A DNA stretch of 64,000 nt from Thermoplasmata archaeon (GCA_041304525.1 JBFYNF010000045.1:7479-71478); one strand, 5' to 3'; shown: positions 21,535 to 39,970, numbered from the stretch's first letter. The notes: generated by a model from the letters alone, not told the origin. Numbers and translations are program-made.

Positions 21535-21557
21535 AAGGCTTTGAAGGATGTGATTCC

Positions 21558-22151: not shown

Positions 22152-22161
22152 CCTTATATAT
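22152..22161 (+). promoter_or_regulatory. TATA-like box upstream of giant archaellin gene
   Basis: CCTTATATAT lies about 45 nt upstream of element copy 2 and about 205 nt upstream of the ATG. Confidence 0.45.
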
Positions 22162-22202
22162 CAACGGCCCTGATTGAATATCAACAGCCTCCAACGCATC
22201 TC

Positions 22203-22230
22203 GAGGCACTATCCACAGGGCATGTAGACC
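22203..22230 (+). repeat. archaellin-leader conserved element, copy 2 (28-nt form)
   Basis: GAGGCACTATCCACAGGGCATGTAGACC. The 22-nt core is identical to copy 1, and all 28 nt are identical to the reverse complement of copy 3. Confidence 0.8.
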
Positions 22231-22365
22231 GTAGGCTCTCGTCCTCAGGACGAGCTAGTAGGCAGGTCCGTAGGACCTGCCCATTCTGATAGTGTCCCAC
22301 GTTGGTGACCGCTGCAATCCGAACATAGCCACGTTCCATGCCCTCCAAACACGGAGAGGACTGGG

Positions 22366-24087
22366 ATGGGGCTTCGCAAGATCCGACAACTGAGGGCACA
22401 GGACGAAGAAGCCGATATCGGTATCGGTACTCTGATCATCTTCATCGCGATCGTACTAGTGGCGGCCATTGCGGCATCGCTCATACTGTACGCGGCCGCG
22501 CTGCTCCAGGAGCAGGCTGAGAGGACCGCGGACGACGCAGTATCGGAAGTGGCTGGTGGCCTGTCGGTCATCAACATAGCGGGTGACCGAAACCCGGACG
22601 GAGAAGCGTCGACGATAGTCTCGGGATACATGCCGGTGACTGACAACCATGCGCCCATCGGTGGAATACTATGGAATGTCACAGCCTCGACCGACGGGAC
22701 GTCAGTACTAGGGGTTGCCCTGAACTGGACCCCTGCGAACGATTTCGGGTCAGGGTTGTACGAGGAGATCGTGTACCGCACCTCCGTGTACGATCCCACC
22801 AACCCGGCCGTATTCAACGAACAGATCGCAAGGAACCGTCTCTTGACGCTCGACCAGCTGAACCCATCCATGGAGCTCGTCAGGCTCGGCGCGGGTTCCA
22901 GGTCTACCGTCCAATACACTGACTACACCGTTAGGGACGACAACTCGACCTCCTACGCCTACGCCATAGTGGGCGTGGACAGGGCGGGGAACGTCGTACT
23001 CTACACAGCCATCGACAGCTCCACCTCCACGGACGGCTCGTCGCATGACGAGGACCTCGTGCCGCCCTCCGGCGGCTCGATGACGAGCACTGCCAGGCCC
23101 GACGAATATTCAGTGGCGCTGTTCTGGGTGCCTGCGAGTGACGGCGCGAGCGGAATAGATGCTCAGAGGCTGTACAGGACCGAGGGGGCTGTGAGCTCTC
23201 TGCCTATAACCATCCAGGATGGAAGGACCGTGGTGACTGTCCCAGTCACGGTGACACTCTTGGAGGAGTTCAATTCCACCACATCGAGTCACGTCGACGC
23301 TCCCTCTGAGATCGGGGTGTACACGTACTTCATCGTGGTCCGAGACAACGCTGGGAACGAGGAGTTCATCGGCACCCTCAGTTACGACGCGCAGACGGTC
23401 GATTCGAACCCGCCCGAGAACGCAGGGTCGGTATCCGTCAGACAGGCCCCACAGTCAATGAACATATCCTGGACGGAGGCGACCGATGCGCAGACGGCTG
23501 TCTCTTCGTACCTGATCTTCAGGAGCACGAGTATCGGCACCCTTGACACGATTGAAGAGCTCATGACCATGGCGCCGTTGGCGGAGCTCGACTCGAGCGC
23601 CGGGAACTACTCCGACTACTCCGGTACGTCGGGCACGCTCTACTACTACGCAGTCGTGGCAGTCGATTCCGCCGGCAATTACGCTCAGTCCTCGATGCCA
23701 TCCAACACCATACAGATGATCGAGATCAAAGTCAAGACCGTCCCGGGAAGCAGGCCTGTGCAGTTCACGACCATGATGATCGAGATAACCGATGGCATGA
23801 CCGATGTCACCCTGAACTTCAACTCCGGTCAGTTGGGGGCCTCCGGCGCGACCGCCACCATGTTCTCCGCAGAGATCCTGAGGGATCCCGACAGCACCTT
23901 CGCCACCACATTCTCACTCTACGATGGTGCCCTAGTGAAGGTCTTCATCGACGCGGGCGAGATTGGATTGAGCCTGCATGCGGACTCGTCGTTCTCCCTC
24001 AAGTTCATACCGGCAATCGGGCAGCCGACCCTCGAGGAGTGCAGGATACCATACCTCGGTACGTATAGGTACGTAATACTCGTGTGA
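22366..24087 (+). CDS. flaB: giant archaellin (573 aa) with three FN3-like domains inserted
   Basis: Archaellin N-terminus ADIG|IGTLIIFIAIVLVAAIAASL and archaellin-like C-terminal domain (IQMIEIKVKTVPGSRP...ITDGMTDVTLNFN). About 360 aa between them hold three repeats with an FN3-like pattern (L.W.PA.D..SG....YR ... Y.Y.VV.VD.AGN). Confidence 0.8.
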   Translation: MGLRKIRQLRAQDEEADIGIGTLIIFIAIVLVAAIAASLILYAAALLQEQAERTADDAVSEVAGGLSVINIAGDRNPDGEASTIVSGYMPVTDNHAPIGGILWNVTASTDGTSVLGVALNWTPANDFGSGLYEEIVYRTSVYDPTNPAVFNEQIARNRLLTLDQLNPSMELVRLGAGSRSTVQYTDYTVRDDNSTSYAYAIVGVDRAGNVVLYTAIDSSTSTDGSSHDEDLVPPSGGSMTSTARPDEYSVALFWVPASDGASGIDAQRLYRTEGAVSSLPITIQDGRTVVTVPVTVTLLEEFNSTTSSHVDAPSEIGVYTYFIVVRDNAGNEEFIGTLSYDAQTVDSNPPENAGSVSVRQAPQSMNISWTEATDAQTAVSSYLIFRSTSIGTLDTIEELMTMAPLAELDSSAGNYSDYSGTSGTLYYYAVVAVDSAGNYAQSSMPSNTIQMIEIKVKTVPGSRPVQFTTMMIEITDGMTDVTLNFNSGQLGASGATATMFSAEILRDPDSTFATTFSLYDGALVKVFIDAGEIGLSLHADSSFSLKFIPAIGQPTLEECRIPYLGTYRYVILV

Positions 24088-24129
24088 TTCTTGGAAGCCA
24101 GTCGTCCCGGAATCAACGCGGAGCGAATC

Positions 24130-24158
24130 AGGGGTGAGAATCACCCCTAGTAATTTTT
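24130..24158 (+). terminator. hairpin plus T5 terminator after giant archaellin gene
   Basis: AGGGGTGA-GAA-TCACCCCT (8-bp stem), followed by AGTAATTTTT. Confidence 0.55.
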
Positions 24159-24166
24159 CTGAATAT

Positions 24167-24178
24167 TTGTATAATAAT
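24167..24178 (+). promoter_or_regulatory. AT-rich TATA-like region upstream of flaB3 leader
   Basis: TTTGTATAATAA lies within the only AT-rich stretch (24151-24187) of this intergenic region. Confidence 0.4.
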
Positions 24179-24217
24179 GTTTATGACTTGTCCTCTCGAT
24201 AGTAAGGGCTCGAGAGA

Positions 24218-24245
24218 GGTCTACATGCCCTGTGGATAGTGCCTC
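24218..24245 (-). repeat. archaellin-leader conserved element, copy 3 (inverted)
   Basis: The plus strand reads GGTCTACATGCCCTGTGGATAGTGCCTC, the exact reverse complement of copy 2. Flanked by GAGAGG/CCTCTC. Confidence 0.8.
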
Positions 24246-24566
24246 TCAAGCCAACCTTGGGAGGCACATCTCTCTCACTCCCCGCTGTAGGGCACGGCGG
24301 TTGCCTCGGAGGTGAGGCGTGAGGACCTGGTAAACACGATTGACCTGGTTGCCGCCAGAATCGATTGATCGCCCCAGAGCAACGACGTGCCAAGTACGGG
24401 GTACAAAACCGTGTGTTTTGGACCTACATCGAGCAGAGGAAGCTCTCGATGTCCCGCCTGTGGCGGGGGAGCCAGGATCGGCTCTGACGATCCCCGCGCC
24501 GGCAGGTTCGCCGGTCGTCCCTCAGGTACGGAACCTGGGAAAGATGCGAGATTGGAGGAAGAAAGA

Positions 24567-25181
24567 ATGCAGAAACTAGCATGGAAGAAGAGGAAGATGG
24601 AAGAGGAAGGTGAGATGGGTGTTGGTACCCTTCTGATCTTCATCGCCATGATACTCGTAGCCGCTGTGGCCGCGGGTGTACTGGTTCAGACCGCATACAA
24701 GTTGCAGCAACAGGCTGAGAGCACCGGTAACGAGGCACTGCAGGACGTCGCCACGGGCTTCAAGGTCCTGACTGTCTGGGGAACCACGGGCACTGGTGGG
24801 AACATCACTGACGTGTACCTGAAGATCGCCCTTACGGCGGGCAGCCCCGGCATCAACCTTGCAGACGCCAAGATCGAGGTCATACAGACAATCGGCGGAA
24901 CCACTGCCTCTGAAGTGACCCTTGATTATGTGGACGGCGCGCCATCGGCATCGGCGTTCAACGCAACTGTGCTGAGGGACATGGCTCCGTCGACGACTGC
25001 CGCGATGATGACCTCTGGCGACATATTCCAGGTCCACCTTGACCTCGAGACGATGGTCATGGGTCTGGATGTCCAGGAGCAGCTCTCTGTGTTGCTGATG
25101 CCGAAGCACGGTGTCCCAACACTGTGTGAGATAACTGCGCCCTCGACGCTCGAGGCAAGCAGCGTGGTTGTCCTGAAGTAG
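24567..25181 (+). CDS. flaB: archaellin (FlaB/ArlB) 3
   Basis: ATG at 24567 preceded by [26 protein letters not shown]|[26 protein letters not shown] is identical in protein to flaB1 over the N-terminal helix. Both are 204 aa. Confidence 0.9.
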
Positions 25182-25203
25182 AGACACAAGCCTCTGCGAA
25201 CCC

Positions 25204-25255
25204 GTCAGGGCATCACCAAACCCCTCCCTTTCTGGGAGGGGGATGGTGCCCTGAC
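25204..25255 (+). other. long imperfect hairpin between flaB3 and flaC/D/E
   Basis: GTCAGGG..CACC..CCCCTCCC-TTTCTG-GGGAGGGG..GGTG-CCCTGAC, giving 7+4+8 bp with small internal loops. Confidence 0.4.
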
Positions 25256-25284
25256 TAGAGAGCACGGGGAAATGGTGTAAGGAA

Positions 25285-26442
25285 ATGGCTGGCCTGTTCC
25301 GCAAGAAACCAGAGAAAGACGGTTCCTCCGCAAGAAGGAAGCTGAAAGGCTTCGAGGAGGGATTCGAAGAGGAGGCGGAAGAGGGGGCCTACGAGGAGAC
25401 TGAGACTAGCCAGAGAGCCGACAAACTCGTCAGCGCGGAAGATGAAGACTACTTGGGAGAGGACGAGGCCAGCGGCGCAGGTCTCGCAGGCGTCAAGGAG
25501 CTAAGCGAGCTCATGGGACGCCTGGAGGAGATCGAGGACAAGATGGGCCGGATCGACTCCGCTCTCACAACGGATCGGAACGAGAATGCCAAGGTCCGGG
25601 ACCGGCTCAATCAGATGGAACAGGACATCAGGAAGCTCCTTTCCGTCTACGAGGTCGTGTCCACCAAGTTCAACCCCTTCCTAGATGTCTCCGAGAAGAC
25701 CCCCCCACCTGTCCAGCCCCAACCGGCTGTGATGCCTGAGCCCGCTCCGTTCGCTCCAATCGAGCTGGACGGGGACATACCGGAGTTCCGGCCATATCAG
25801 GAAGGGGAAGTGGAGCCGCCCACCTTCAATGGCAAAGGGCCCAAGGCCAGCCGCGACGCCGCCCCGTGGGAGCCAGGGACGTCAACCGCTACCGTTGAGA
25901 CAGTGTTCTCCGGACCCAGGAGAGAGCCCCCACCGACACTCGACAAGACCTCGAAGGACGAGAAGTATGAAAGGCAGGTGAGAGCGTCCGCGAGGAGCAA
26001 ACACAACAAGAAGCCGCTCCTTGCGTACATCCCACACGACTACCTGACGCTGGTCCTCGTGATGCGCTGGATAGAGTTCCTGTTCGAGCGCGTGACCAGG
26101 GAAAGGATGTCGCTCGTGCTAGACTACTATGTCGATGTAGGATGGATCAGCGAGGACGTGAAATCAGAGATCATGTCCTACGCGCGCGGAGAAATGCAGG
26201 ATGTGACCAAGTACATGGGCCAAGAGGAGGTAAGGGAGGACGTGTTCCGCGACCTCCCGCCGCCGACAGCGGCCCCGTACAAGAAGGTCGAGGACTGGCG
26301 TCTGTCCGCAGACGACCACCTGAAGTCCCTGCTGTTCGTGCAGAAGATAGCCGGACTAGAGGTTGACAAGGACCGCCTTAACTCCCTCGAACAGAACATC
26401 TCCAAATTCAAGGAGAGTCTGGAGGGCTTTCATGGGGTTTAG
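25285..26442 (+). CDS. FlaC/FlaD/FlaE-type fusion protein (ArlCDE-like)
   Basis: N-terminal coiled coil ending LSVYEVVSTKFNPFLD (FlaC-like), a Pro-rich linker, then the FlaD/E domain (LVMRWIEFLF...YYVDVGWISEDV...DWRLSADDHLKSLLFVQKIAGLEVD). Confidence 0.8.
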   Translation: MAGLFRKKPEKDGSSARRKLKGFEEGFEEEAEEGAYEETETSQRADKLVSAEDEDYLGEDEASGAGLAGVKELSELMGRLEEIEDKMGRIDSALTTDRNENAKVRDRLNQMEQDIRKLLSVYEVVSTKFNPFLDVSEKTPPPVQPQPAVMPEPAPFAPIELDGDIPEFRPYQEGEVEPPTFNGKGPKASRDAAPWEPGTSTATVETVFSGPRREPPPTLDKTSKDEKYERQVRASARSKHNKKPLLAYIPHDYLTLVLVMRWIEFLFERVTRERMSLVLDYYVDVGWISEDVKSEIMSYARGEMQDVTKYMGQEEVREDVFRDLPPPTAAPYKKVEDWRLSADDHLKSLLFVQKIAGLEVDKDRLNSLEQNISKFKESLEGFHGV

Positions 26443-27622
26443 TGTCTCGGCTACAATGGCGATATTCTTCGCCGCCTTTCTAATCCTTTTTTCTATTCTT
26501 TATTCCTCTTTGAACGACGCCTTCGACTCTGTGTCGGAGTCGTTCGATGAGAAGTACGAATACATGAACGATCGACTCGATACGCAAGTGACGATACTCG
26601 ACGTCAGTTACCAGAGGGACTCAAACACCCTAGATATCAGGGTCCAGAACACTGGCAGCAAGGTCCTGGACATATCCAAGGTCGACCTGATTCTGGAAGG
26701 GGCCATCCCCACGTCGTTCAATAAGACCATCCAGGGGACGGACACAGAGGTTTGGCTCCCGACTGAGGTCCTCACGATCACTGTCGATGATCCCGATGTG
26801 TCATTCGAGACTGACCTCGACCCGCGCGCTTCGCTCACCAATGACGCCTCCCTGTCTGCCCCCTCGAATGTCTCCGTTGGAGAGAGCGTCTACGTCCTGG
26901 ATGGACAGGACATAGATGTCTTCACGCTCGGAGGTGTCTTCGATTTCACGATTACAGACTCATCAAACATGGTCTCGCCCTCTGACCTGAAAGTGTGGGG
27001 AGATTATCTCTACGTACTGGACGAGGGCACACACATCGATCGGTTCGGACTCGACGGGGCTTGGGTGGACCGGATAGTGAACGACACGACGAACTCGTCC
27101 ATCCTGACCTCATTCAGCGTCGATTCCGAGTACATATACATCATAGACAACAGGAGCCACATCGACCGGTATGGCCTGGCCACAGGAATATTCGTGGACT
27201 CGATTGTGCCGAACGGAGGCACGATGACATCGCCGCGAGACATCTTCGTCAGCTCGCACATCTTCGTGATCGACTACAGTTCGGGATACCATGTTGACGT
27301 GTACGAGCTGGACGGCAGCGGAGGGACGGAGTTAGTCGGCACGGTAGGGCTCTCGTCGCCAACGGATATCTGTGCCAGCGCGAACGGCCTGGACGACGTG
27401 TATGTGTATGTCGTCAACGGATCGAGCGAGGTGGCCGTGTTCAACGCAACGGGGTCGCCCGTGGACATAGTCGACAGCCTGCTGAGCGACTCTGTGATCG
27501 CCGTAGACGTCACAGGCAAGATGTATGTCTCTGACAATGTGAATGGACTCGTCGTGGAGAACCTGGGTACTAACATCAAAGTGGTGGTAGAGAATGGAAT
27601 CTCATGTGTCACAGTGCAATAG
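26432..27622 (+). CDS. flaF: FlaF-like protein fused to six-bladed NHL-like beta-propeller
   Basis: N-terminal TM helix plus an FlaF/G-type beta-sandwich (TQVTILDVSYQRDSNTLDIRVQNTGSKVLD). Six ~40-aa repeats of the form sP.d..v....iYViD....hIdrF.l.G follow. The start overlaps the upstream stop. Confidence 0.65.
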   Translation: MGFSVSATMAIFFAAFLILFSILYSSLNDAFDSVSESFDEKYEYMNDRLDTQVTILDVSYQRDSNTLDIRVQNTGSKVLDISKVDLILEGAIPTSFNKTIQGTDTEVWLPTEVLTITVDDPDVSFETDLDPRASLTNDASLSAPSNVSVGESVYVLDGQDIDVFTLGGVFDFTITDSSNMVSPSDLKVWGDYLYVLDEGTHIDRFGLDGAWVDRIVNDTTNSSILTSFSVDSEYIYIIDNRSHIDRYGLATGIFVDSIVPNGGTMTSPRDIFVSSHIFVIDYSSGYHVDVYELDGSGGTELVGTVGLSSPTDICASANGLDDVYVYVVNGSSEVAVFNATGSPVDIVDSLLSDSVIAVDVTGKMYVSDNVNGLVVENLGTNIKVVVENGISCVTVQ

Positions 27623-27631
27623 GAGGTGGAG

Positions 27632-28072
27632 ATGATGGGCGCAAGCGGAGCATCGACTCAGCTGATATTCTTCATATCCGCGTTGATCGTGGCAACGGCA
27701 GTAGTCGCCGTGGCCGCCAACGGGGTGTCCAAGATAACCAACGGGATAGACCAGAAGAGCGATAATGTGGAGAAGGATCTGCTGACGGACATTTCGATAA
27801 TAAACGACCCTGACGAGATCCCGAACGACCCTGTCAGGATATATGTCAAGAACGTGGGCAAGACCGTCCTGAACCAAAACTATATCACAGTAATGCTGGA
27901 TGGGTTTGCGGTCACGAACTACACGCTGACGCTGAGCGGGAGCACGTTGTCCTACTGGGACCCCGCGAGCATGCTGACGATATCAATAGACCAGAATTTG
28001 GCAGAGGGGGACCATTCGGTACAGGTGACCACCGAGAACGGCGTCTCTGACAAGCTCAGCTTCCGCATATGA
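27632..28072 (+). CDS. flaG: FlaG-like archaellum protein
   Basis: AGGAGG RBS. Archaellin-like N-terminus GASGASTQLIFFISALIVATAVVAV plus a beta-sandwich (VRIYVKNVGKTVLN). Position between flaF and flaH. Confidence 0.7.
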   Translation: MMGASGASTQLIFFISALIVATAVVAVAANGVSKITNGIDQKSDNVEKDLLTDISIINDPDEIPNDPVRIYVKNVGKTVLNQNYITVMLDGFAVTNYTLTLSGSTLSYWDPASMLTISIDQNLAEGDHSVQVTTENGVSDKLSFRI

Positions 28073-28076
28073 CGGG

Positions 28077-28787
28077 GTGAACCCTCCAATGGGGGAGACC
28101 TACAAGCTACAGATACCCAGAGACGACCTACATGACCAGCTAGGTCAGGGCCTCCCCGCGGGAACGATAACGTTGGTCGAGGGAGCGCATGGGACCGGAA
28201 AAAGCGCCCTCGTCCAGCGGATGATCTACGGATTCCTTTCGAACCAACACTCGGTAACGTGCATATCGACGGAGCTGACCGTCAGGGACTTCATCAACCA
28301 GATGTACTCGCTCGACTACCCCATATCCTCATGGCTCCTGAACGGGAAACTGAAGTTCGTGCCTGTGTACCCACTCGTGGGCAAGGCCAGGAAGAGGAGC
28401 GACTTCCTGGGCATGCTGATGGGCTCCGAGGAACTGTACAAGAGTGACATCATGATCATAGATACCTTCTCCAGCCTCGTCAGCAACAGCCTTCATGGGG
28501 AAGACAACAGCATAGGTGTGCTGTCATTCTTCAAGAGACTCACCGGCATGGGTAAGAGCATCGTGGTGACAGTGGACCCGACTGAACTGGACCCTAAGGC
28601 GCTCGCACCGTTCGAGTCGGACAGTCACGTGTATTTGAGCATAATCGTGTCACAGGTCGGCGGGATGATATCCAGGAGCATCATGGTGAAGCGGTTCGGT
28701 GGCACCGAGTACAGGGTGTCCCCGGTCGTGGGCTTCAGGATAGAGCCTAATGTGGGCATGGTCATCGAGATCACATCAGTCGTGTGA
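28077..28787 (+). CDS. flaH: FlaH (ArlH) KaiC/RecA-like ATP-binding protein
   Basis: Walker A VEGAHGTGKSALV, about 235 aa, located upstream of flaI. GTG at 28077 or ATG at 28089. Confidence 0.85.
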   Translation: MNPPMGETYKLQIPRDDLHDQLGQGLPAGTITLVEGAHGTGKSALVQRMIYGFLSNQHSVTCISTELTVRDFINQMYSLDYPISSWLLNGKLKFVPVYPLVGKARKRSDFLGMLMGSEELYKSDIMIIDTFSSLVSNSLHGEDNSIGVLSFFKRLTGMGKSIVVTVDPTELDPKALAPFESDSHVYLSIIVSQVGGMISRSIMVKRFGGTEYRVSPVVGFRIEPNVGMVIEITSVV

Positions 28788-28797
28788 GGTCACGGTC

Positions 28798-30429
28798 ATG
28801 GCGGCGAAGTTCAGCAAGGTCCTGGAACGGAATCCCCACCTGAACGTCTATCTTCAGAGATACGCTCAGGAGACAAACCAGTCGCCGAAGTTCATGGACA
28901 CACTGGGCAGGGATCTCGGGAAGGAGGCGACCGTGGATGTCATCTACCCTGTCGGCGACCCGATATTCATACACCTGCACGGCTCCAAGGACACCGGGCA
29001 CAAGTACGATGTCGTGCAGCCAATGATGGAGGACGAGCTTGGCAAAGCGTACGAGAAGGTCGTCAATAATGTCTTCTTGAAGTCAGGGAAGGAGAAGATC
29101 CACTCGACCGATGAGGAGTTCAACGAGGTCCTGGACAAGCTCCTGAACGAAATAGTCGAGGTCACAGAGAGACGCATCCCCTCGAAGGTCGTACAGCTGT
29201 TCAAACCCAACTCCAAGATCTACGTCACCCCAGATGACTACAGCATCCTGGAGTACTACGTCAAGAGGAACATCCTCCAGAACGGCATCCTCGAACCGAT
29301 ACTCAGGGACCCGTACATAGAGGACATCCACTGCGTCGGCGTCAGGGAGGTGAACCTGTACCACAAGATCCTGGGCATGGTGGAGACGAACATCAAGTTC
29401 TCGAACGTCTCAGACCTGGACAAGTACACCAAGGGGATGAGTGAAAGGATGGGTCGTCCCGCATCGATATCGAGACCGATCATCGACGGCGCCCTCCCGG
29501 ACGGTTCCCGTATCAACATCATCTACGCTGACGACGTGAGCGTCAACGGGCCGACATTCACCATCAGGAAGTTCTCAGCGGAGCCGCTGAGTGCCGCTCA
29601 ACTCTCTGGATGGAACACTGTCTCCGCGCAGGAGGCCGCATACCTCTGGCTCTGTCTCGAGAACGGCATGAGCGTGTTCGTCTGCGGTGAGACCGCCTCA
29701 GGTAAGACGACCCTGCTCAACGCCATATTCCCGTTCATAAGGTACGACCAGAAGATATTCTCGGCTGAGGACACCCTGGAGGTGCAGCCGCCTCACGCCG
29801 TCTGGCAACAATTATCCACAAGGGAGTTCGGCCCGGAGGAGAGCAAGGTGGACACCTTCGCCCTCCTGAGAGCTGGACTCAGGTCCAGACCCAACTACAT
29901 CATCGTGGGTGAGATCAGAGGGAAGGAAGGGAACGTCGCGTTCCAGGCGATGCAGACTGGCATCCCGGTCATGGCGACATTCCACGCCGCCTCCGTCAAG
30001 AGGATGATACAGAGGTTCACCGGCGCCCCGATCAGCGTGCCCATCACGAGCATGGACAACCTCAACGTGGCGGTCTTCCAGGCGGGCGTATACAGGAACG
30101 GGAAGTTGATCAGGAGGACCCTGTCCATCGAGGAGATACTGGGCTACAGCGAGTCGATGGGCGGAGTGATGACCAGGGCAGTCTTCGTATGGAACCCGGT
30201 GAGCGACCAGCACATATTCCGAGGGATGAACAACTCGTTCATACTGGAGGAAAGGATCGCCGTCAAGAGGGGGTACAAGGACAAGAGGGACATATACAAG
30301 GAACTCGCCCTCAGGACCAGGATCATCGAGAAGATGGTCGAGACGAACATGACCTCCTACAAGACAGTCAACGACATCCTCAAGGCATTTCAGAAGGAGG
30401 GAGTGGCCGGCCTGCCGTTCACGGTCTGA
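28798..30429 (+). CDS. flaI: FlaI (ArlI) archaellum ATPase, copy 1
   Basis: Type II/IV secretion ATPase motifs: Walker A GETASGKTT, Walker B/Asp box NYIIVGEIRGKEG, LRDPYIEDIH. The start at MAAKFSKVLERNPHL aligns with copy 2. Confidence 0.9.
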   Translation: MAAKFSKVLERNPHLNVYLQRYAQETNQSPKFMDTLGRDLGKEATVDVIYPVGDPIFIHLHGSKDTGHKYDVVQPMMEDELGKAYEKVVNNVFLKSGKEKIHSTDEEFNEVLDKLLNEIVEVTERRIPSKVVQLFKPNSKIYVTPDDYSILEYYVKRNILQNGILEPILRDPYIEDIHCVGVREVNLYHKILGMVETNIKFSNVSDLDKYTKGMSERMGRPASISRPIIDGALPDGSRINIIYADDVSVNGPTFTIRKFSAEPLSAAQLSGWNTVSAQEAAYLWLCLENGMSVFVCGETASGKTTLLNAIFPFIRYDQKIFSAEDTLEVQPPHAVWQQLSTREFGPEESKVDTFALLRAGLRSRPNYIIVGEIRGKEGNVAFQAMQTGIPVMATFHAASVKRMIQRFTGAPISVPITSMDNLNVAVFQAGVYRNGKLIRRTLSIEEILGYSESMGGVMTRAVFVWNPVSDQHIFRGMNNSFILEERIAVKRGYKDKRDIYKELALRTRIIEKMVETNMTSYKTVNDILKAFQKEGVAGLPFTV

Positions 30430-30447
30430 TCCGCGTTTGCTGGCACT

Positions 30448-30485
30448 GATAGTCAGGCCTGAGAATTGGGCGCCAACCCTTATTA
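30448..30485 (+). repeat. 38-nt promoter/operator-like element, copy A (upstream of flaI-2)
   Basis: GATAGTCAGGCCTGAGAATTGGGCGCCAACCCTTATTA matches 34189-34226 at 33 of 38 positions. It ends in a BRE/TATA-like CCAACCCTTATTA. Confidence 0.7.
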
Positions 30486-30608
30486 CTTCAGGTTCTGGAT
30501 TGGCCTTTGAGGCCACCGAGCGCAGGCTCCACAGGGCTACCTCCGCCCAAGGGTGCGGCATTGGCTCTGCTCAGGAGCCGCTTGAGGCGCCTCAGCGGAT
30601 GGGTGAGG

Positions 30609-32258
30609 ATGCCTGCAGACGAAGCTGGCCTGAAGAAGGCCATGAGGAAGAACCCGCACCTCCTTGAATACGTCCAGGAGTTCGTCAGCAGACACAGGTC
30701 GCCTCCAGAGTTCCACCCCGTGGTCGAACGCAAGATGGGGGACGAGCAGCAGGTCAACGTGATCTACCCGATAGGCGACCCGCTCTTTGTCCATGTGTTC
30801 TCGACAGATAGCATACCCATCAGCTACAAGTCCGTGCAGCCGCCGATGACGCCGGACCTGCAGCCCAAGTACAGAAAGGTCATCCAACAGGTCTACAACA
30901 AGGCCGTCTACATGGACCCGCACGAATCTGTGGAGGAGTTCGAGAAGAATCTCCTGCAGCTGATAGACGCCTCGACAAAGATCTCCGAGAGCAGCACGGA
31001 TGGCGACGGCAAACGCATCTTCGGCGACCTTTTCACGGAGCCAAAGATATTCGTCACCCAGCACGAGCAAGACCTGATCAAATACCATGCGAAGCTGGCG
31101 ATTGTGCTAGCAGGACCCCTTGAGCCACTCCTCAGAGACCCGTACATCGAAGATATCCACTGCATCGGACACGACAACGTCTCCATCGTCCACAAGATAT
31201 TCCAGGCGATGCCGACCGATGTGAAGTTCGAGTCGATGGAGGAACTCGACAACTATGTTCGGGCCTTGAGCGAGAGGATAGGCAGGCCGGCGTCGATGGC
31301 TAGGCCGATAGTGGACGGTACGCTTCCTGACGGGTCACGTATCAACCTCATCTACGCTGACGATGTGAGCGTCAAAGGCCCCAGCTTCTCCATCAGGAAG
31401 TTCGCCGAGGAACCTATAAGCATAACCCACCTGATCGAATGGAACACCATCAGCGCCCAGGAAGCCGCCTACATATGGCTCTGCCTGGAAGAAGGCATGA
31501 GCATATTCTTCTGCGGGGAGACGGCGTCGGGCAAGACGACGACCATGGGCGCGGCCCTCCCATTCATCAAGTACGACAGCAAGGTCTACACGGCCGAGGA
31601 CACCATCGAGATGCAGGTTCCACACAAGGTGTGGCAGAGGTTGGCAACGCGGGACTTCGGCCCTGAGGAGAGCAGGGTCGACACGTTCTCACTGCTCAAG
31701 GCCGCTCTAAGATCGAGACCGAACTTCATCATAGTCGGAGAGATTAGGGGCAAGGAAGGGAGCGTTGCGTTCCAGGCCATGCAAACGGGCCACCCCGTCC
31801 TGTCCACGTTCCACGCGGCATCGACGAGGAAGCTCATACAGAGATTCACCAGCGACCCCATCAATGTGCCCATCACGTTCATAGACAACCTGAATGTCGC
31901 GTTCTTCCAGGCAGGCGTGTACAGGGAAGGTAAATTCCTGAGACGGACGATGTTCATTGATGAGATCGTCGGGTACAACGAAGCGCTAGGCGGGATCATG
32001 ACCCGGACCATCTTCCTGTGGAACGCCGCGGACGACTCTCACATGTTCAAGGGGATGAACAACTCCTACATCCTCGAGGAGAAGATTGCGGTCAAGAGGG
32101 GCTACAGTGACAAGAGGAAGATATACGGTGACCTGGCCCTCAGGACCAAGATACTCGAAGAGATGGTCTCCAGGAAGATATTCAAGTACGAGAAGGTGGC
32201 GGAGATAACCAAGGAGTTCCAGAAGAAGGGGGTGAGCGGCCTACCGTTCCCCGTGTAG
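30609..32258 (+). CDS. flaI: FlaI (ArlI) archaellum ATPase, copy 2
   Basis: Same motifs as copy 1 (GETASGKTT, NFIIVGEIRGKEG) and alignable end to end. ATG at 30609 is preceded by GGTGAGG. Confidence 0.9.
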   Translation: MPADEAGLKKAMRKNPHLLEYVQEFVSRHRSPPEFHPVVERKMGDEQQVNVIYPIGDPLFVHVFSTDSIPISYKSVQPPMTPDLQPKYRKVIQQVYNKAVYMDPHESVEEFEKNLLQLIDASTKISESSTDGDGKRIFGDLFTEPKIFVTQHEQDLIKYHAKLAIVLAGPLEPLLRDPYIEDIHCIGHDNVSIVHKIFQAMPTDVKFESMEELDNYVRALSERIGRPASMARPIVDGTLPDGSRINLIYADDVSVKGPSFSIRKFAEEPISITHLIEWNTISAQEAAYIWLCLEEGMSIFFCGETASGKTTTMGAALPFIKYDSKVYTAEDTIEMQVPHKVWQRLATRDFGPEESRVDTFSLLKAALRSRPNFIIVGEIRGKEGSVAFQAMQTGHPVLSTFHAASTRKLIQRFTSDPINVPITFIDNLNVAFFQAGVYREGKFLRRTMFIDEIVGYNEALGGIMTRTIFLWNAADDSHMFKGMNNSYILEEKIAVKRGYSDKRKIYGDLALRTKILEEMVSRKIFKYEKVAEITKEFQKKGVSGLPFPV

Positions 32259-32265
32259 GTCCTCC

Positions 32266-33927
32266 ATGGCTGCGAGCAAGATGAAGCGTCTCTACCAGTC
32301 CCTCGACATGCCCGTTGAGAAGTACTTCACGAGATACGCTCTCCCGCTCGTGATAGCGGGCATCGGCGCGACTGCCCTGCTGGTCTTCCTATTCCCCGAA
32401 CTGGCGGCCGATGGGCTGTTCAAGTATGTGTTCCTGGCAATCCCTGTCCTCTTCTCGGTCGTGGCAGTAATATACCCGATGCTACAGGGTGAACGGAAGA
32501 AGGTCCAGATAGAAAGGAACATGCACCTGTTCCTCGTCAGGATGAGCGTCCTCTCGACATCGAAGCTGCCAAGGAAGAAGATGCTCGAGATCCTTTCGAA
32601 GGTCAAGGAATATGAAGCGCTCAGCCTTGAAATCGAGAAGATCTACAAGCTCATGGAATACTGGAACATGGGTCTCTCGGACGCCGCGAGGACCGTCTCC
32701 CGCAAGACTCCCTCGCCGATGCTAGCAGATTTCCTCGACAGGCTCGCGCACTCATCCGATGCGGGCGAGGACCTCGAGGAGTTCCTCACCAAGGAGCGGG
32801 AGGTGTCCATGAGCGTCTACATCAACAAGTACGAGACGGCGCTCAAGGACCTCGACCTGCTGAACGAGATATTCGTCGCCGTGCTGATATCCCTGATGTT
32901 CATCCTCGTGTTCGTCGCGCTCCTGCCCGTGTTCGTGGACATATCCATCACCCTCATTCTTCCGGGCGTCGCGCTGCTGTTCGTCATCGTCGAGGGGATG
33001 GTGCTGTATCTGGTCAAATCGCTACTTCCATCGGACCCCATATGGCACAACATCAAGGGGCAGACCGAGATCGACAAGGTGATGAAGTCCGTCCTTCCGG
33101 CGACATACGCGGCATGCATCGGGTTCGCCGCCTTCGGGTTCCTGACGGGCTTACCCCTGATGCTCATAGTCGCGCTTGTCGTCACACCGCTCCTGTATCC
33201 AGGGTTCATGATAAGGAGGGAGGAGAAGCGGGTCAGGGCCAGGGACGAGAACTACGATTCGTTCATGAGGGCCGTGGGCAGCTACGCGGCATCTGCTGGC
33301 TCCGCGGTCACGGATGGCGTCGGCAGGCTGAGCAAGCACGACTTCGGGGAGCTCTCGGAAGGCATAGTGATCCTGTACAAGCGCCTGCTCACCCGGATAG
33401 ACCAGATACGCGCCTGGAACCTGTTCGCAGCCGAGAGCGGGAGCAACCTGATCTCCAAGTTCACGGAGATGTATGTCGTCGGTCTGTCCGTGGGCGGGAA
33501 GGTGGACAAGGTCATCGACATCATCAGCGACAACTTCGTGAAGCTGATGGGCGTCAGGCGCAAGAGGTACCAGTCATCCGACAACATGCTGGGGACATTG
33601 TATGGGATGTCCGTCGGCATAACGTTCACCTTGTTCTCCGCGCTGAGCCTGATGCAACTCCTGAACATCATGAACGAGCAGTTCGCGCTCTCCCAGACGA
33701 CGATCAATCTGCCCATCGCGCTGAAGCCATTCGACCTGGGCCTGGCTGAGGCGGTCTTCCTGCTCATCATGCTCGTGCACTCGCTCATATCCGCGAACCT
33801 CGTCTCCTTCGCCGGCGGCAGCCACAAGCATAGTTTCTACATCAACTTCGCAATCATAACATGGATCAGCACCGTGACGGCCATCGTCACACAGTTGATG
33901 CTCGACAAGGTCCTGAACCTCTCATGA
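32266..33927 (+). CDS. flaJ: FlaJ (ArlJ) archaellum membrane platform protein
   Basis: 553-aa polytopic membrane protein with a duplicated T2SS-F-like organisation, directly downstream of flaI. Confidence 0.85.
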   Translation: MAASKMKRLYQSLDMPVEKYFTRYALPLVIAGIGATALLVFLFPELAADGLFKYVFLAIPVLFSVVAVIYPMLQGERKKVQIERNMHLFLVRMSVLSTSKLPRKKMLEILSKVKEYEALSLEIEKIYKLMEYWNMGLSDAARTVSRKTPSPMLADFLDRLAHSSDAGEDLEEFLTKEREVSMSVYINKYETALKDLDLLNEIFVAVLISLMFILVFVALLPVFVDISITLILPGVALLFVIVEGMVLYLVKSLLPSDPIWHNIKGQTEIDKVMKSVLPATYAACIGFAAFGFLTGLPLMLIVALVVTPLLYPGFMIRREEKRVRARDENYDSFMRAVGSYAASAGSAVTDGVGRLSKHDFGELSEGIVILYKRLLTRIDQIRAWNLFAAESGSNLISKFTEMYVVGLSVGGKVDKVIDIISDNFVKLMGVRRKRYQSSDNMLGTLYGMSVGITFTLFSALSLMQLLNIMNEQFALSQTTINLPIALKPFDLGLAEAVFLLIMLVHSLISANLVSFAGGSHKHSFYINFAIITWISTVTAIVTQLMLDKVLNLS

Positions 33928-34188
33928 GGGAGAAAGGTGAGCGTCCGTCTGCGGTCCATGGCTGGCCTGAAGAGGTTTGGCCACCGAATCTTGCCTTTCG
34001 CAGTCGTCCTCTGAGAGAACGCGCATGGGCCAGCCTCTGGACAGGTTCTGACGAACGCTTGATTCGACTATCCTTAGCGCTTTTCATAAGCGTTTGGCAA
34101 GGAATCTCCGCACTGAGAATCGGTCGAGATTCTCTTCCCCACCCTGTGTCCGGACAACTGGTGTTGTTTCGCTGCACTTGACGCACAT

Positions 34189-34226
34189 GATAGTCAGGCG
34201 CGAGAATTGAGCGCCAAACCTTATGA
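34189..34226 (+). repeat. 38-nt promoter/operator-like element, copy B (upstream of surface protein gene)
   Basis: GATAGTCAGGCGCGAGAATTGAGCGCCAAACCTTATGA. The TATA-like end lies 23 nt before the ATG at 34250, which is consistent with a leaderless mRNA. Confidence 0.7.
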
Positions 34227-34249
34227 GTGGATAGACCTGATTTTGACAT

Positions 34250-37200
34250 ATGGCCACCGTGAGTAGGACGGCGCTCACGAGCACGATGCTCGTTGTTCTG
34301 CTCCTCCCGATGACGCTCATGGTCCTGCTCCAAGGACCGCCGGCGCCGTCCGCTCACGCATTTCCCATAGACGATTTTGGGAGCAGCATCAGACTCACTT
34401 TCGACCAAGCCATATCGACCAACGTATCCTCCAGCGTGGATGACGACGGCAATATACACGTCGTGTGGGAAGACTACAGGTCCGGGGCCGGGGACATCTA
34501 CTACATGAAGCTGGACGACGAAGGCAACAAACTCACCAACGACGCGAAGATATCCAACGACACCACCGCATCCCGGAACCCATCGGTGGCAGCTGACTCG
34601 GACGGACACATATACATCGTGTGGGAGGATGTGGACAACGGCTCGTCTGAGCTATTGTTCGCGAAGCTGTGGTACTACGAGGGCAACATCACATTCCAGG
34701 AGAATGGGCTCCAGGTATCGGACAGCGACCCCGCGAACTCGACTGAGCCGGACATCGCCGTGTGCCAGGACGGCAACCTATCCTTGGTTTGGACCGACGC
34801 TCGGCACGACGCCGGCGACGGCAACCTGGAGATCTACTATAAGCGCCTGAGGATGTCAGGGACCTCTCTCACACCCGATACGCGCGTGACTGGAGACGTT
34901 GGACGGTCTGAACACCCGAGGCTCGATACAGACTCTGATGGTATGGTCCACATCGTCTGGTACGATTTCAGGGACTCCAGTAACGGCCTGGTGATCAACC
35001 ACGGCGTGTTCTACAGGAAGGTCATAATGGACGGCACGCCCCTGACACCCGAGACGAGGATCACCTTCGCTTCACCTCAGTCGAGGCCTGACATAGCAAT
35101 AGACACTGATGGAAACGTACACGTGGTCTTCGACGACGACCGGTATGCGAGTTTCGACATATTCTACACGCTCCTCGACCCTGACGGGAACACACTCGTG
35201 GATGACAGGAACATCTCACCCAAAGACGACAACGAGTCCAGATGCCCCAGGATAGCCCTGAGCGACTCCAACGCAGTCGATGTCGTGTGGCAGGACCAGA
35301 CGTCCGGTCTATGGGCCATCCACTACTCCGCGATGAACTACAACGGTGAAATCGAGGTCTACGACCAAGGACTGACTTCAGAAACGGTCGGGAACGCCAC
35401 CATCCCTGTGGCGATGTGCGCGAATGACAACAACACCCTCGTGATGTATGTGGGCGACTATCCGAACATGGAGGTGTTCTTCTCAAGGACTCACAGGCCG
35501 GATCCGGCGGTGCTCGCGGGCGGGATTTCCATGTCATCCACCCAACCACTGATCGGGACCACTGTCTGGGTCAATGCGACCGTGTGGAACCTCGAAGGGG
35601 ATGCCCTAACGGATCTGGCTGTCCGCCTGATGGTCGATTCGGTGGCGGTCGAAGACGCCACTGTAGCCTACCTAGTAGCAGGGCACTCAACCGTCGTCAG
35701 TTTCTCACACACAGCGTCCGAAGGCGAGACCATCGTGACTGTGGCCGTCGACCCTGATCAGACCGTAAGGGAGACATTTGAGACCAACAACCAACAGTCA
35801 GCCCCTATGCTCGTCCGGACGCCCGGGGTCGTTCTGACGTCCGACGTCAGCAGCCAATCTGCTGAGCCCGACGAGACGGCCATATTCAACATCACAATCA
35901 CCAACGAAGGCAACACGGCGTTCTCATTCTGTCTGTCGAACTCCGAACCTGAGAGCGGCTGGATCATTGACCTGGGTGGCTCGCCTGAGGGCATCTACAC
36001 GGTTCCCGCAGGCTCGTCGGCCGTGGCTACTGTTGAGGTCACGGTTCCCGAGGATGAGACGCCTGGAGCGCGTGCGTTCTCCGTGCTCGCCACATGCGTC
36101 GAAAGAGACTCCGTCAACGACAGCGTCACCCTCATGGTGGATGTCGTCAGGTTCGGCGAACTGACTGTTGTATCGTCCGACGGAGGAGATGTCGAGCCGA
36201 CCATCCCTGAGCTATACACGTTCACTGTCTCAAACTCGGCCAACGCCAATGAGACCTTCGCGGTCTCGGCCTCCGACCTCCTCGGATGGGACCTCGTCGC
36301 TTCCCATGACGAGCTGGAGCTCGCACCCGGTGAGGAGGCTGAGGTGTCCGTGCTCGTGACGCCTGCTAGGTACGATCCCCCGGGCACACTGAATACGCTC
36401 ACGTTGACCCTGTCATCCATGAACTTGACCTGGAACACAGTGGAAGGGAACTTACTCATGATCGTGGGGCATCACTGGGAGGTCGACGCCAAGCTGACGC
36501 AACAGGCGTTCCTCAACATGTCTGTGCCAGATGAGAGAGAGGTCAGGTACATCCTCGATGTGACGAACCTAGGCAACTCAGATGATGTGTTCAGGCTGAG
36601 TCTATCGGGGATTGATGCGTTCTGGGCCACCCTGAACACGACCTATGTGTTCCTCGGAGCCGGGGACGAGCAGCAAGTCTACATATCCCTCACACCAGGC
36701 GTGGACGTGCTCGCAGGCGCATACCCTTTCAATGTGACCGTCGTGTCGGAATCCGACGACAATGCGACGGAGACCCTGGAGATGGGAGTGTCCGTGTTGC
36801 CGTTCTACGACATCTCAGTATCGGCTGAGTTCGCACAGGTGAGCCTACGACGAGGAGAGACCGCGTTCGTCAACCTGACGGTCCGGAACACCGGCAATTC
36901 GGCGGATGTCGTCGACCTGTACGCGTACGTGGGCGCCCTAAACACGACAACGGCTACCTTTGTGGGTGAGGTGGTGTCACTGGAAACGGGAGACCCCATC
37001 CTCATCGCTCTGGAACCCGGAGGGTCTGCCACAATCATGCTGACGATACCGGTTCCCGGAGATGTCGAGATCGGCTTGCAGGACTTGTGCATGGACTTCA
37101 GTTCCATGACCGACCCGAGCGTTATGGCATCTCAGACCGTCAGTGTGCTAGTAGAGGATGACCCGTCTTGGTTCACTCTGTGGGTCATACTGATCATAGT

Positions 37201-37351
37201 CGGCGCAGCAGTGGCCGTCGTGGTCCTCGTCGTGTTCCTGATACTCAGGAAGAGGAGGGCAGAGGAGGTCGCAAGGGAGGAGGAGCGGCGGAAGATGCAG
37301 GCAAGGAAGAGGCCTCCGGGGCCCCCGAGGGTCAAACCGAAAGCGCCGTGA
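34250..37351 (+). CDS. large surface protein: signal peptide, ~7 beta-propeller-type repeats, CARDB/NEW3-like Ig domains, C-terminal TM anchor
   Basis: N-terminal hydrophobic signal. About 52-aa repeats (D.DG..H.VW.D.R.G...IYY..L...G). Several domains carry [FY]..TV.N.GN..D.F patterns. C-terminal TM helix plus a Lys/Arg-rich tail. Confidence 0.7.
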   Translation: MATVSRTALTSTMLVVLLLPMTLMVLLQGPPAPSAHAFPIDDFGSSIRLTFDQAISTNVSSSVDDDGNIHVVWEDYRSGAGDIYYMKLDDEGNKLTNDAKISNDTTASRNPSVAADSDGHIYIVWEDVDNGSSELLFAKLWYYEGNITFQENGLQVSDSDPANSTEPDIAVCQDGNLSLVWTDARHDAGDGNLEIYYKRLRMSGTSLTPDTRVTGDVGRSEHPRLDTDSDGMVHIVWYDFRDSSNGLVINHGVFYRKVIMDGTPLTPETRITFASPQSRPDIAIDTDGNVHVVFDDDRYASFDIFYTLLDPDGNTLVDDRNISPKDDNESRCPRIALSDSNAVDVVWQDQTSGLWAIHYSAMNYNGEIEVYDQGLTSETVGNATIPVAMCANDNNTLVMYVGDYPNMEVFFSRTHRPDPAVLAGGISMSSTQPLIGTTVWVNATVWNLEGDALTDLAVRLMVDSVAVEDATVAYLVAGHSTVVSFSHTASEGETIVTVAVDPDQTVRETFETNNQQSAPMLVRTPGVVLTSDVSSQSAEPDETAIFNITITNEGNTAFSFCLSNSEPESGWIIDLGGSPEGIYTVPAGSSAVATVEVTVPEDETPGARAFSVLATCVERDSVNDSVTLMVDVVRFGELTVVSSDGGDVEPTIPELYTFTVSNSANANETFAVSASDLLGWDLVASHDELELAPGEEAEVSVLVTPARYDPPGTLNTLTLTLSSMNLTWNTVEGNLLMIVGHHWEVDAKLTQQAFLNMSVPDEREVRYILDVTNLGNSDDVFRLSLSGIDAFWATLNTTYVFLGAGDEQQVYISLTPGVDVLAGAYPFNVTVVSESDDNATETLEMGVSVLPFYDISVSAEFAQVSLRRGETAFVNLTVRNTGNSADVVDLYAYVGALNTTTATFVGEVVSLETGDPILIALEPGGSATIMLTIPVPGDVEIGLQDLCMDFSSMTDPSVMASQTVSVLVEDDPSWFTLWVILIIVGAAVAVVVLVVFLILRKRRAEEVAREEERRKMQARKRPPGPPRVKPKAP

Positions 37352-37441
37352 TGGGGTGCCAGCAGGTTCCCGGACATGAATTGTGGACCCGGAAAGCTTT
37401 AAGTACAGTACCCGATTATCGGGAATCAGGTGATTTAATTG

Positions 37442-39485: not shown

Positions 39486-39827
39486 ATGAGGAAGGAGTTC
39501 GAGAGCGAGTTGGCGAGACAGGTATCAGGAAAGAAGAGACTCAGCAGGGCCTGGGTCATGTTGGCACTCTGTGCTGCCATTTTGGTCAGCGGGGCAGCGG
39601 CCGTGACGGCCGTAGCCGCAGGCAATGGAGATCAGCTCCAAACCCAGGACCAGCTCAAGGACGGTTCGTGCGACGACTGCGACGGCGACGGCATCTGCGA
39701 TTACGACCTAGACGGTGACGGTGTCTGTGACAATGATTGCACGTGCGACTGTGACGGCGACGGGATCTGCGACAACGACTCCGATGGAGACGGGGTCTGC
39801 GACTACCAAGAGGATTGCGTCGCCTGA
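39486..39827 (+). CDS. small membrane-anchored Cys/Asp-rich repeat protein (TSP type-3-like DGDGxCD repeats)
   Basis: ATG at 39486 after GGAAGTGAGGA. TM helix AWVMLALCAAILVSGAAAVTAVAA, then four DGDG[IV]CD units in CDDCDGDGICDYDLDGDGVCDNDCTCDCDGDGICDNDSDGDGVCDY. Confidence 0.5.
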   Translation: MRKEFESELARQVSGKKRLSRAWVMLALCAAILVSGAAAVTAVAAGNGDQLQTQDQLKDGSCDDCDGDGICDYDLDGDGVCDNDCTCDCDGDGICDNDSDGDGVCDYQEDCVA

Positions 39828-39970
39828 AGCGCCAGTGCTGAGTCGATTAGTCCTGGCAACGGATAGTGGTTGAAACCCATTCAGAACCTGTCGGGGACGA
39901 GTCGCCCCGACAGGCGATCAGTATTCTCCCGTTCCCCGCCTTGGAGAATGTAGGAAGGCAGACCGGGGAA

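Follow-up and report, generated by a model that had tools for sequence, protein, structure and literature searches.

The archaellum gene island and its repeated element

We analysed a stretch of 64,000 nucleotides (nt) from an uncultured Thermoplasmata archaeon (GCA_041304525.1, JBFYNF010000045.1:7479-71478), hereafter the window, which carries an archaellum gene island and, within it, two copies of a 38-nt element: copy A before flaI-2 and copy B before the gene of a 1033-amino-acid (aa) surface protein. The gene order starts with an Lrp/AsnC regulator, followed by a coiled-coil gene of ~390 aa and a small winged helix-turn-helix (wHTH) gene, both on the minus strand, and by a second small wHTH gene on the plus strand. 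The three archaellins come next, with a small FlaD/E-like protein (21558-22019) between archaellins 1 and 2, and then FlaC/D/E, FlaF, FlaG, FlaH, FlaI-1, copy A, FlaI-2 and FlaJ. Downstream of FlaJ there is a 322-nt spacer with copy B, the gene of the 1033-aa protein, LSM, L37e and PurF. A preliminary description, made from the sequence, had proposed that the 38-mer is a promoter/operator-like element shared by flaI-2 and the surface-protein gene. The gene identities that it gave were borne out: the island encodes two T2SSE/FlaI paralogues (FlaI-1 and FlaI-2, 56% identical), a T2SSF/FlaJ protein and the 1033-aa surface protein.

The latter (gene 34250-37351) presents a signal peptide, CARDB and Ig-like domains, many N-glycosylation sequons, and a C-terminal membrane helix with a basic tail. 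Wherever the fetched contig of a relative reaches far enough, the order from the third archaellin to PurF is kept, with surface proteins 46-90% identical. In one relative, L077, LSM-L37e-PurF lies directly beside the coiled-coil gene and the entire block from the wHTH genes to the surface protein is missing; therefore, the surface protein is part of the archaellum island. The block is absent at 2736-3000 of L077, as compared with 19451-37441 of the window, and it behaves as an insertion/deletion unit of ~18 kb that contains the two wHTH genes, the archaellum genes, the surface protein and the candidate RNA described below. The tandem pair of FlaI-type ATPase genes (28750-32258), 1829 nt apart, is kept in all the archaellated relatives examined, and only the second gene precedes FlaJ and has its own predicted promoter. 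The assemblies of one metagenome-assembled genome (JAHIRF / Ga0180007) break within this tandem repeat.

Both 38-mers lie where they had been placed (30448-30485 and 34189-34226) and are identical at 33 of 38 positions. The similarity begins one base earlier than first noted (T30447 and T34188) and, past ~24 diverged bases, returns in register at GGCCACCG (30511-30518 and 34252-34259), so that the true unit is of ~75 nt. A degenerate 29-nt core (27 specified bases, up to three mismatches) matched only copies A and B in the window, and gave no match in 100 dinucleotide-preserving shuffles. With a profile of the copies, nhmmer returned an E-value of 4e-14 for copy A and for copy B.

Conservation was judged on two alignments (A1 and A2, the latter including the flaI-2 leader) and on more than 30 further copies. 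The copies occupy homologous sites, one upstream of flaI-2 and the other upstream of the surface-protein gene, in all the related loci, from more than 15 Thermoplasmata genomes, including relatives whose surface protein is 46-60% identical. The conserved blocks follow one order: TGATAGTCA, five variable bases, GAGAATTG, variable bases, AA-NN-CTTAT, ~11 variable bases, GGAT (at A copies) or TGATT (at B copies), ~9 variable bases and a start block. The start block is GAGGCC[A/G]CCGAGC at A copies and ATGGCCACCGTG at B copies; the latter is kept at the nucleotide level in nearly all species, with ATGTCAAGTGTG in L016, the most divergent, and ATGGCTATCGTG in L018. The base before GAGAATTG is always T in A copies and always C in B copies. 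These class-specific bases, fixed in each copy, indicate an old pair of which both members are under selection. The possibility that the copies are a functionless relic, either of a duplication such as that of flaI-1/flaI-2 or of a small mobile element, has in its favour the flaI tandem duplication right beside copy A, and the ~75 nt shared in register, the latter suggesting common descent. It is opposed by the fixation of A- and B-specific bases across the lineage and by the block-by-block retention in species whose spacers and proteins have diverged (to 46-60% identity) and whose intervening sequence is randomised. Furthermore, we found no terminal inverted repeats or target duplications, and there are two fixed strict copies per genome. 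We regard a neutral origin of this kind as most improbable.

The element is also specific. A profile built from 16 copies was run on the window and on ~150 kb of relatives, and scored the A and B sites alone (E-values from 1e-14 to 7e-7), the next match having an E-value above 1. When 185,579 species genomes and 241 M metagenome records were scanned with the exact core, A-type and B-type sites came up in Thermoplasmata only, plus the handful of chance bacterial matches that was expected, in which the rest of the module is absent. The complete 1.42-Mb chromosome CP070736.1 has exactly two strict-core sites. It could be thought that the 38-mer is simply the general promoter consensus of the organism, with no specific regulator, as its last ~13 nt (CCAAACCTTATGA in copy B) do resemble the transcription factor B recognition element (BRE)/TATA regions of other genes of the window. 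Nevertheless, the upstream 25 nt were not present in any other upstream region of the window or of ~200 kb of relatives, and the strict core occurs just twice per genome, both by the profile and by the two collection-wide scans; therefore, the element is not a general promoter consensus, an explanation to which we give almost no credit. On the other hand, the palindrome GGCGC-N9-GCGCC of the preliminary description was not conserved: its positions change freely, with no compensating changes, and GAGCACCAA is already present in strains of the species itself.

The conserved blocks present the geometry of an archaeal promoter (upstream box, BRE/TATA, -12 box and start-site block), which supports the promoter/operator reading. 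CCAAMC and CTTATKA, as expected for a TBP/TFB core, are conserved at both copies. Compared with the TTTATATA-type boxes that other genes have, the TATA boxes of the two copies (CTTATTA and CTTATGA) are weaker, and the housekeeping promoters of the window have TTTATATA-like boxes without these upstream boxes. Weak core elements are typical of activator-dependent promoters, for instance the EarA-dependent fla promoter (PMC5512572, PMC10665913). As had been described, the ATG at 34250 follows the end of the TATA-like box of copy B by 23 nt, and the equivalent position in copy A is 30509, 100 nt before the flaI-2 ATG (30609). Archaeal transcription starts at a purine ~22-27 nt past the TATA box, which in leaderless genes is the A of the ATG. 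The surface-gene ATG, 24 nt after the end of the TATA box, and the aligned G30509, which heads the conserved block of copy A, agree with this spacing, and the invariant ATGGCCACCGTG 24 nt after the TATA box fits a leaderless surface-gene message. The predicted flaI-2 leader measures 98-114 nt and contains in-frame stops in five of seven species; therefore, the stretch from G30509 to the ATG would be a leader and not coding, a coding reading being ruled out by these stops and by the variable length.

The element is conserved at orthologous promoters while the spacer diverges, and is restricted to few promoters, two properties expected of an operator of a regulon. We consider it likely that the 38-mers belong to a promoter/operator module of the archaellum island. 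Each would be the upstream two-thirds of an activator- or operator-dependent archaeal promoter module of ~75 nt, specific to the archaellum island of one Thermoplasmata lineage. Such a module would comprise a palindromic TGA-N3-TCA box (TGATAGTCA), GAGAATTG 5 nt later and a weak BRE/TATA (CCAAMCCTTATKA) 10 nt further, then a -12 box and the start site 24 nt after the TATA box (Table 1). Copy A would drive an internal flaI-2/flaJ transcript with a ~100-nt leader, and copy B the leaderless message of a membrane-anchored surface glycoprotein. The boxes may serve either activation or repression.

Table 1. Location of the promoter copies, predicted message ends and candidate RNA in the window
Feature	Positions	Strand	Elements
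Copy A	30447-30485	+	box 1 TGATAGTCA 30447-30455; box 2 (T)GAGAATTG 30461-30468; weak BRE/TATA CCAACCCTTATTA 30473-30485
Copy A, downstream part	30497-30521	+	-12 box GGAT 30497-30500; predicted start G30509; conserved 5'-terminal block GAGGCCACCGAGC
Predicted flaI-2 leader (~100 nt)	30509-30608	+	end carries GCCUCAG..GGAUGGGUGAGG directly before ATG 30609
Copy B	34188-34226	+	box 1 TGATAGTCA 34188-34196; box 2 (C)GAGAATTG 34202-34209; BRE/TATA CCAAACCTTATGA 34214-34226
Copy B, downstream part	34238-34275	+	-12 box TGATT 34238-34242; predicted leaderless start ATGGCCACCGTGAG (ATG 34250)
GAGAWTC box cluster	34100-34134		GGAATCTCC, TGAGAATC, palindromic GAGATTCTC; between promoters C and B
Copy C	34084-34122	-	CGATTCTCA-N4-GGAGATTCC-..-CCAAACGCTTATGA; diverged, inverted, back to back with copy B, toward flaJ
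Candidate RNA (~130 nt)	33928-34062	-	predicted start near 34060; promoter C points at it
P1 terminal stem of candidate RNA	34059-34050 with 33949-33940	-	
P3 hairpin of candidate RNA	34020-34015 with 34011-34006	-	
Invariant core of candidate RNA	33976-34002	-	UGCGAAAGGCAAGAUUCGGUGGCCAAA, including GCGAAAGGCAAGAUUCGGUGGCC; two adjacent seeds
Copy D	19480-19518	-	TGATAATCA-N4-CGAGATTCG-..-GGAAACATATTTCA; predicted promoter of ~390-aa coiled-coil gene (18218-19393/19450, -)
Predicted 5' end of D message	19439-19456	-	UUGCCUUUCGCA, a 12-mer
Copy F	19925-19965	-	TGATTGTCTC-N4-TGGAATTG-..-TTTATGA; predicted promoter of wHTH gene 2 (19550-19888, ATG 19888, -)
Promoter E	20058-20098	+	box 1 TGATTCTCA 20058-20066; 22 nt; strong TATA TTATATATAT 20089-20098; without box 2; wHTH gene 1 (20179-20547)
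wHTH-1 start site	20169-20181	+	GGCTACCGA running into TTG start codon; complementary to UUCGGUGGCC with one G.U pair

Copy A sits 17 nt past the flaI-1 stop codon. Its motif GGCCACCG lies inside the block GAGGCCACCGAGC, which is followed by a small hairpin, GAGC-N4-GCUC. At the end of the flaI-2 leader (30575-30608), GCCUCAG-N-GGAUGGG-N-GAGG is conserved, and pairing of CCUCA with UGAGG could mask the Shine-Dalgarno-like GGUGAGG before the ATG. Another hairpin, CCGUGAG-N10-CUCACG, is present within the first codons of the 1033-aa gene. The surface-protein gene calls of L016 (6937) and L017 (10001) start inside the promoter element, at a GTG in box 1 or at an ATG inside CTTATGAG. These starts appear to be mis-called, and an ATG at the canonical distance is found ~25 nt (L017, ATGGCCACCGTG) or ~63 nt (L016, ATGTCAAGTGTG) downstream of the called start.

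Further copies of the boxes and candidate binding proteins

The preliminary description had suggested that a common factor regulates flaI-2/flaJ and the surface protein separately from the archaellin genes. The co-regulation is plausible but not exclusive, because diverged copies with identical spacing precede other units of the island, and the box extends to the island as a whole. Copy C is the closest to copy B. Its spacing is that of A and B, and alignment A3, of 14 species, shows little or no variation in CAAAC-GCTTAT and GATTCTCA; taken alone, it was not significant by nhmmer. The GAGAWTC boxes between promoters C and B form an inverted repeat, GAGAATC-N6-GATTCTC, which is kept in all species. 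For copies D, E and F, conservation was evaluated in four species. Copy D is kept in all four, and in the island-less L077 its TATA box is kept with degenerate boxes. The architecture of copy F is also kept in the four species, with GAGGCCACC at its predicted start (19901-19893) and the GGCCACC block in two of the four only. Promoter E, which has box 1 and lacks box 2, conserves the box and its spacing in the four species. The pattern YGATNNTC-N7-RGAWT-N13-WTWT recovered exactly copies A, B, C, D and F in the window, where 0.01 matches were expected, and only the homologous positions in ~500 kb of relatives.

These copies also bear on a different explanation, in which the element would not be a promoter and would act in plus-strand RNA, as a processing or protein site of a long flaB-to-flaJ transcript. 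The position of copy A just past flaI-1, within an array of genes on the same strand, would suit such a role, and in Pyrococcus intergenic signals inside the arl cluster do modulate expression (PMC10665913). However, no pairing is conserved within the 38-mer, TCAGGCCTGA being palindromic only in copy A of some species, and the geometry is fixed relative to the TATA box and the start-site block. In addition, C, D and F are oppositely oriented in divergent spacers, where a long sense transcript is not expected, and copy B comes after a region of probable termination, with a leaderless ATG downstream of it at the canonical distance. We thus consider an action in plus-strand RNA quite unlikely, and we keep the promoter module as the preferred reading.

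As regards the protein that could bind the boxes, the two wHTH proteins of the island are paralogues with 30% identity. They are obvious candidates because they are paralogous, lineage-restricted and highly conserved, and each of their genes is preceded by a copy of the box; the binder would most likely be one or both of them. The Lrp/AsnC-family gene (17644-18204), convergent with the coiled-coil gene downstream of copy D, is a less likely source, because L077, which has neither the island nor the boxes, carries it too.

Other observations were made in the leaders of the island genes and around it. Before the third archaellin gene (ATG 24567), the TGA-N3-TCA box is seen in the window as GGGGTGAGAATCACCCC, located, as in promoter E, 22 nt before a TATA box (both within 24131-24180) and followed by a leader of ~370 nt. 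The last ~250-330 nt before that ATG are strongly conserved in relatives and contain several hairpins, for example ACATCGAGCAGAGGAAGCTCTCGATGT and CCGGCAGGTTCGCCGG, so the region 24131-24566 looks like a long structured 5' untranslated region (UTR), which gave no Rfam match at gathering score. The leader of wHTH gene 1 (20139-20165) has a conserved hairpin, CUCCCCCC-N4-6-GAGGGGAU, which would hide the Shine-Dalgarno-like GAGGGGAUC located directly before the GGCYACCGA site. Downstream of purF, 30-nt periodic repeats (39674-39833) encode Asp/Gly/Cys-rich units at the end of an open reading frame of 165 aa, with a weak match to TSP3-like calcium-binding repeats.

A candidate small RNA opposite flaJ and its complementarity to island messages

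Strong conservation of the spacer between flaJ and the surface-protein gene is not limited to copy B. On the minus strand, 14 species present the same order: the boxes of copy C, CAAAC-GCTTAT, 31-35 nt, and AGCGYCYG, which pairs with CRGRCGCU ~110 nt downstream (helix P1). Further on there is a hairpin GUUCUC/GAGGAC (P3), an invariant GAAAGGCA-AUUCGGUGGCCAAA, and a C/U-rich tail (33939-33928), with oligo-U in several species, that abuts the flaJ stop codon. We propose that this block encodes a candidate RNA of ~130 nt.

Since the variable P2 region cannot be aligned, RNAalifold gave no useful result with plain MAFFT alignments of the entire spacer, and the structure was evaluated by per-sequence folds, anchored helices and a covariance model. 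Single-sequence folds gave the same architecture in 13 species. In an alignment not fitted to the model, P1 and P3 were paired in 90.6% of cases, compared with 38-53% for slid partners; double changes were observed in 7 of 16 pairs, and the observed covariation was reached in none of 500 shuffles. When 23 distinct sequences were aligned to the covariance model (alignment A6, which is thus fitted to it), 87.4% were paired, with double changes in 11 of the 16 pairs and again none of 500 shuffles reaching the observed value. Slid partners gave 37-56% across both alignments. P1 and P3 are therefore supported by covariation, and these helices alone do not fix the strand. The model matched the window at 34060->33939 with 85 bits, and found one full-length match per archaellated locus, always on the strand opposite flaJ, and none in control loci, in the island-less relative or elsewhere in the window.

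To place the RNA on one strand, we have four observations: the minus-strand BRE/TATA before P1, 15 G.U cells against 7 A.C cells, a folding z-score in the window of -3.3 for the minus strand as compared to -1.4 for the plus strand, and a pyrimidine tail after P1 on the minus strand only. We assign the candidate RNA to the minus strand with moderate confidence. With Rfam 15 only two transfer RNAs (tRNAs) reached the gathering score in the window, and nothing relevant appeared at E <= 10 in 33700-34500. One Rfam tRNA call of 105 nt (9567-9671), missed by ARAGORN in bacterial mode, is probably an intron-containing archaeal tRNA. A 34-codon open reading frame within the candidate RNA was discarded, as there is no ATG at the corresponding position of L013, the one relative inspected, and the variable regions differ in length.

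Within the invariant core of the RNA, two seeds lie side by side. One of them, GCGAAAGGCAA, has its complement at the predicted 5' end of the D message; the other, UUCGGUGGCC, has it in messages A, B, E and F. The core is the reverse complement of TTTGGCCACCGAATCTTGCCTTTCGC, which joins the A/B start motif GGCCACCGA to the D start motif TTGCCTTTCGCA, a 12-mer found identical at 19450-19439; therefore, the RNA could pair with the A, B and D messages. Likewise, since the D 12-mer UUGCCUUUCGCA is identical to the plus strand at 33991-34002, it is complementary to the candidate RNA. The complementarity extends over 9-11 nt from +3 of the predicted A message and from +2 of the predicted leaderless B message, over 9-13 nt at the predicted 5' end of the D message, and over 11-13 nt across the start codon of wHTH gene 1, where GGC[C/T]ACCGA is kept in four species and duplicated in L076. 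At the F start, GAGGCCACC is complementary to the core in two of four species. The D duplex ranked third by energy among 42,648 windows, and the island-less L077 has neither the candidate RNA nor the D motif.

The site variants are compatible with wobble pairing: the A sites of one clade change A->G opposite U, and L018 has C->T twice in the B site and G->A twice in the core. At D, one species alters three adjacent positions on both sides and keeps the pairing; another alters one edge pair on both sides and loses pairing at the other edge.

According to these data, we propose that GGCCACCG at the starts of the A and B messages may be a docking site for the ~130-nt RNA that promoter C would express. 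The D boxes would drive the coiled-coil gene, F one wHTH gene, C the minus-strand RNA and the box-1-only promoter E the other wHTH gene, in such a way that a single factor would turn on the targets together with their RNA regulator, and factor and RNA would make a feed-forward or feedback loop. To the pairing of the RNA with these messages we give about an even chance. The same holds for the complete island-encoded circuit, in which an RNA convergent to flaJ, with two adjacent seeds in one invariant loop, would pair with the 5' ends of A, B and D and with the start codon of a wHTH regulator: it may as well be wrong as right.

The main alternative keeps a real promoter module and dispenses with a regulatory RNA: GGCCACCG(A) and TGCCTTTC would be protein sites just past the starts, in double-stranded DNA or plus-strand RNA, and the structured block would be the 3' UTR or terminator of flaJ, carrying the same sites. 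The motifs read alike on the plus strand at all sites, and in the window it is the plus strand that gives the better mini-hairpin UUUGG-CCA-CCGAA. Both strands allow helices P1 and P3, with two species favouring the plus strand at one P1 pair, and the duplex energies of A and B are unremarkable, all of which would be in agreement with protein sites. Against them, a conserved minus-strand BRE/TATA faces the structured block at the right distance, and the asymmetry between G.U and A.C cells, the z-scores and the tail past P1 all favour the minus strand. Furthermore, the transitions at the A sites and in L018 preserve pairing through wobble, and in one species three neighbouring positions change jointly in the D site and in the core, which is not expected of a protein site. 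Positions such as +3, +45 and a start codon would also be odd for a single DNA operator. We consider the protein-site explanation possible, though rather unlikely.

Several points weigh against the module and the RNA circuit as proposed here. On the side of the promoters, every transcription start was placed from spacing alone, the pattern that recovers the five copies was composed after seeing them, and the A/B profile does not score C, D and F, which have diverged too far. The candidate binder was picked by gene location, which is a guess. Searches of the wHTH proteins against Pfam, NCBIfam, PDB sequences and by homology gave weak HTH_20/TrmB/Sta1-like matches and no named homologue; no family was named above its curated threshold, and the sources give generic regulator names only. 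TACATA, the motif of EarA, is found neither in the two 38-mers nor in the copies of the relatives. As for the RNA, the mean z-scores over 14 species (-1.6 for the minus strand, -0.7 for the plus strand) represent a modest signal and a modest strand difference, and two species have in P1 a C.A, which on the plus strand would read G.U. By energy, the duplexes of A and B lie no higher than about the top 1% of the window. The seeds are nearly invariant, and the seed-target covariation depends on D, where two of the four species are compensatory. Besides, L016 lacks the B start motif, two of four species lack the F motif, and in CP070732 the pairing is lost on one side.

Relation to known systems and significance

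The module resembles the EarA-dependent archaellum promoters of Methanococcus maripaludis and Thermococcales (PMC5512572, PMC10665913) in its short boxes directly upstream of the BRE, in its sub-optimal core and, by analogy, in a small DNA-binding protein, encoded close to the cluster, that is presumed to recruit TFB/TBP. Unlike it, EarA sites are 6-bp TACATA repeats at the first archaellin promoter, whereas here TGATAGTCA and GAGAATTG are located at internal and accessory promoters, and the candidate regulators are lineage-restricted HTH_20-like proteins. The EarA homologue is always adjacent to a methyltransferase gene (PMC10117864). No methyltransferase domain was found among the island gene products examined or in the gene calls of the relatives, and the wHTH family carries no EarA name. 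Since the sequence test for EarA failed, the module would be a lineage-specific analogue and not an EarA member. It is also similar to the Ptr2 and Lrp-type upstream activating sites of archaea (PMC5512572), with a palindromic half-site pair upstream of a weak TATA/BRE at fixed helical spacing. It differs from them in its unrelated sequence. An Lrp/AsnC gene does adjoin the D gene, and L077 has that gene as well. Altogether, the promoter/operator interpretation of the preliminary description was largely right, although too narrow and wrong on the palindrome.

In bacteria, small RNAs (sRNAs) of the Hfq/ProQ type control flagellar genes, and archaeal sRNAs include those of Haloferax and Methanosarcina. 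The candidate RNA has in common with multi-target sRNAs a predicted promoter of its own, a terminal stem, a U/C-rich tail, an invariant unpaired core, and a complementarity of 9-13 nt to the 5' ends or start codons of linked messages, including that of a regulator gene. In contrast to known sRNAs, it belongs to no Rfam family, is encoded inside the island it would regulate and would be driven by the same promoter box as its targets, one of which would be a leaderless message paired from +2. sRNAs are not mentioned in a 2021 review of the archaellum (PMC10117864), and our literature search on archaeal sRNAs returned only general haloarchaeal sRNA phenotypes.

To our knowledge, archaellum regulation has been worked out in detail for Sulfolobus alone, through the Arn network, and, via EarA, for Methanococcus and Pyrococcus; we know of nothing on its regulation in Thermoplasmata, a lineage that is mostly uncultured. 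The locus described here offers a compact and testable map: a pair of boxes is defined, it is present at five or six promoters, and two candidate regulators are encoded in the island itself. A large surface glycoprotein may, in addition, be a member of the motility regulon, and the candidate RNA comes with explicit predicted target sites. If this RNA is real, it would add a post-transcriptional layer to archaellum control and would provide a natural system to study the regulation of a leaderless message by RNA. As far as we could find, no other RNA regulator dedicated to an archaeal motility apparatus precedes it, and it would also exemplify an RNA that acts on a leaderless message from +2.

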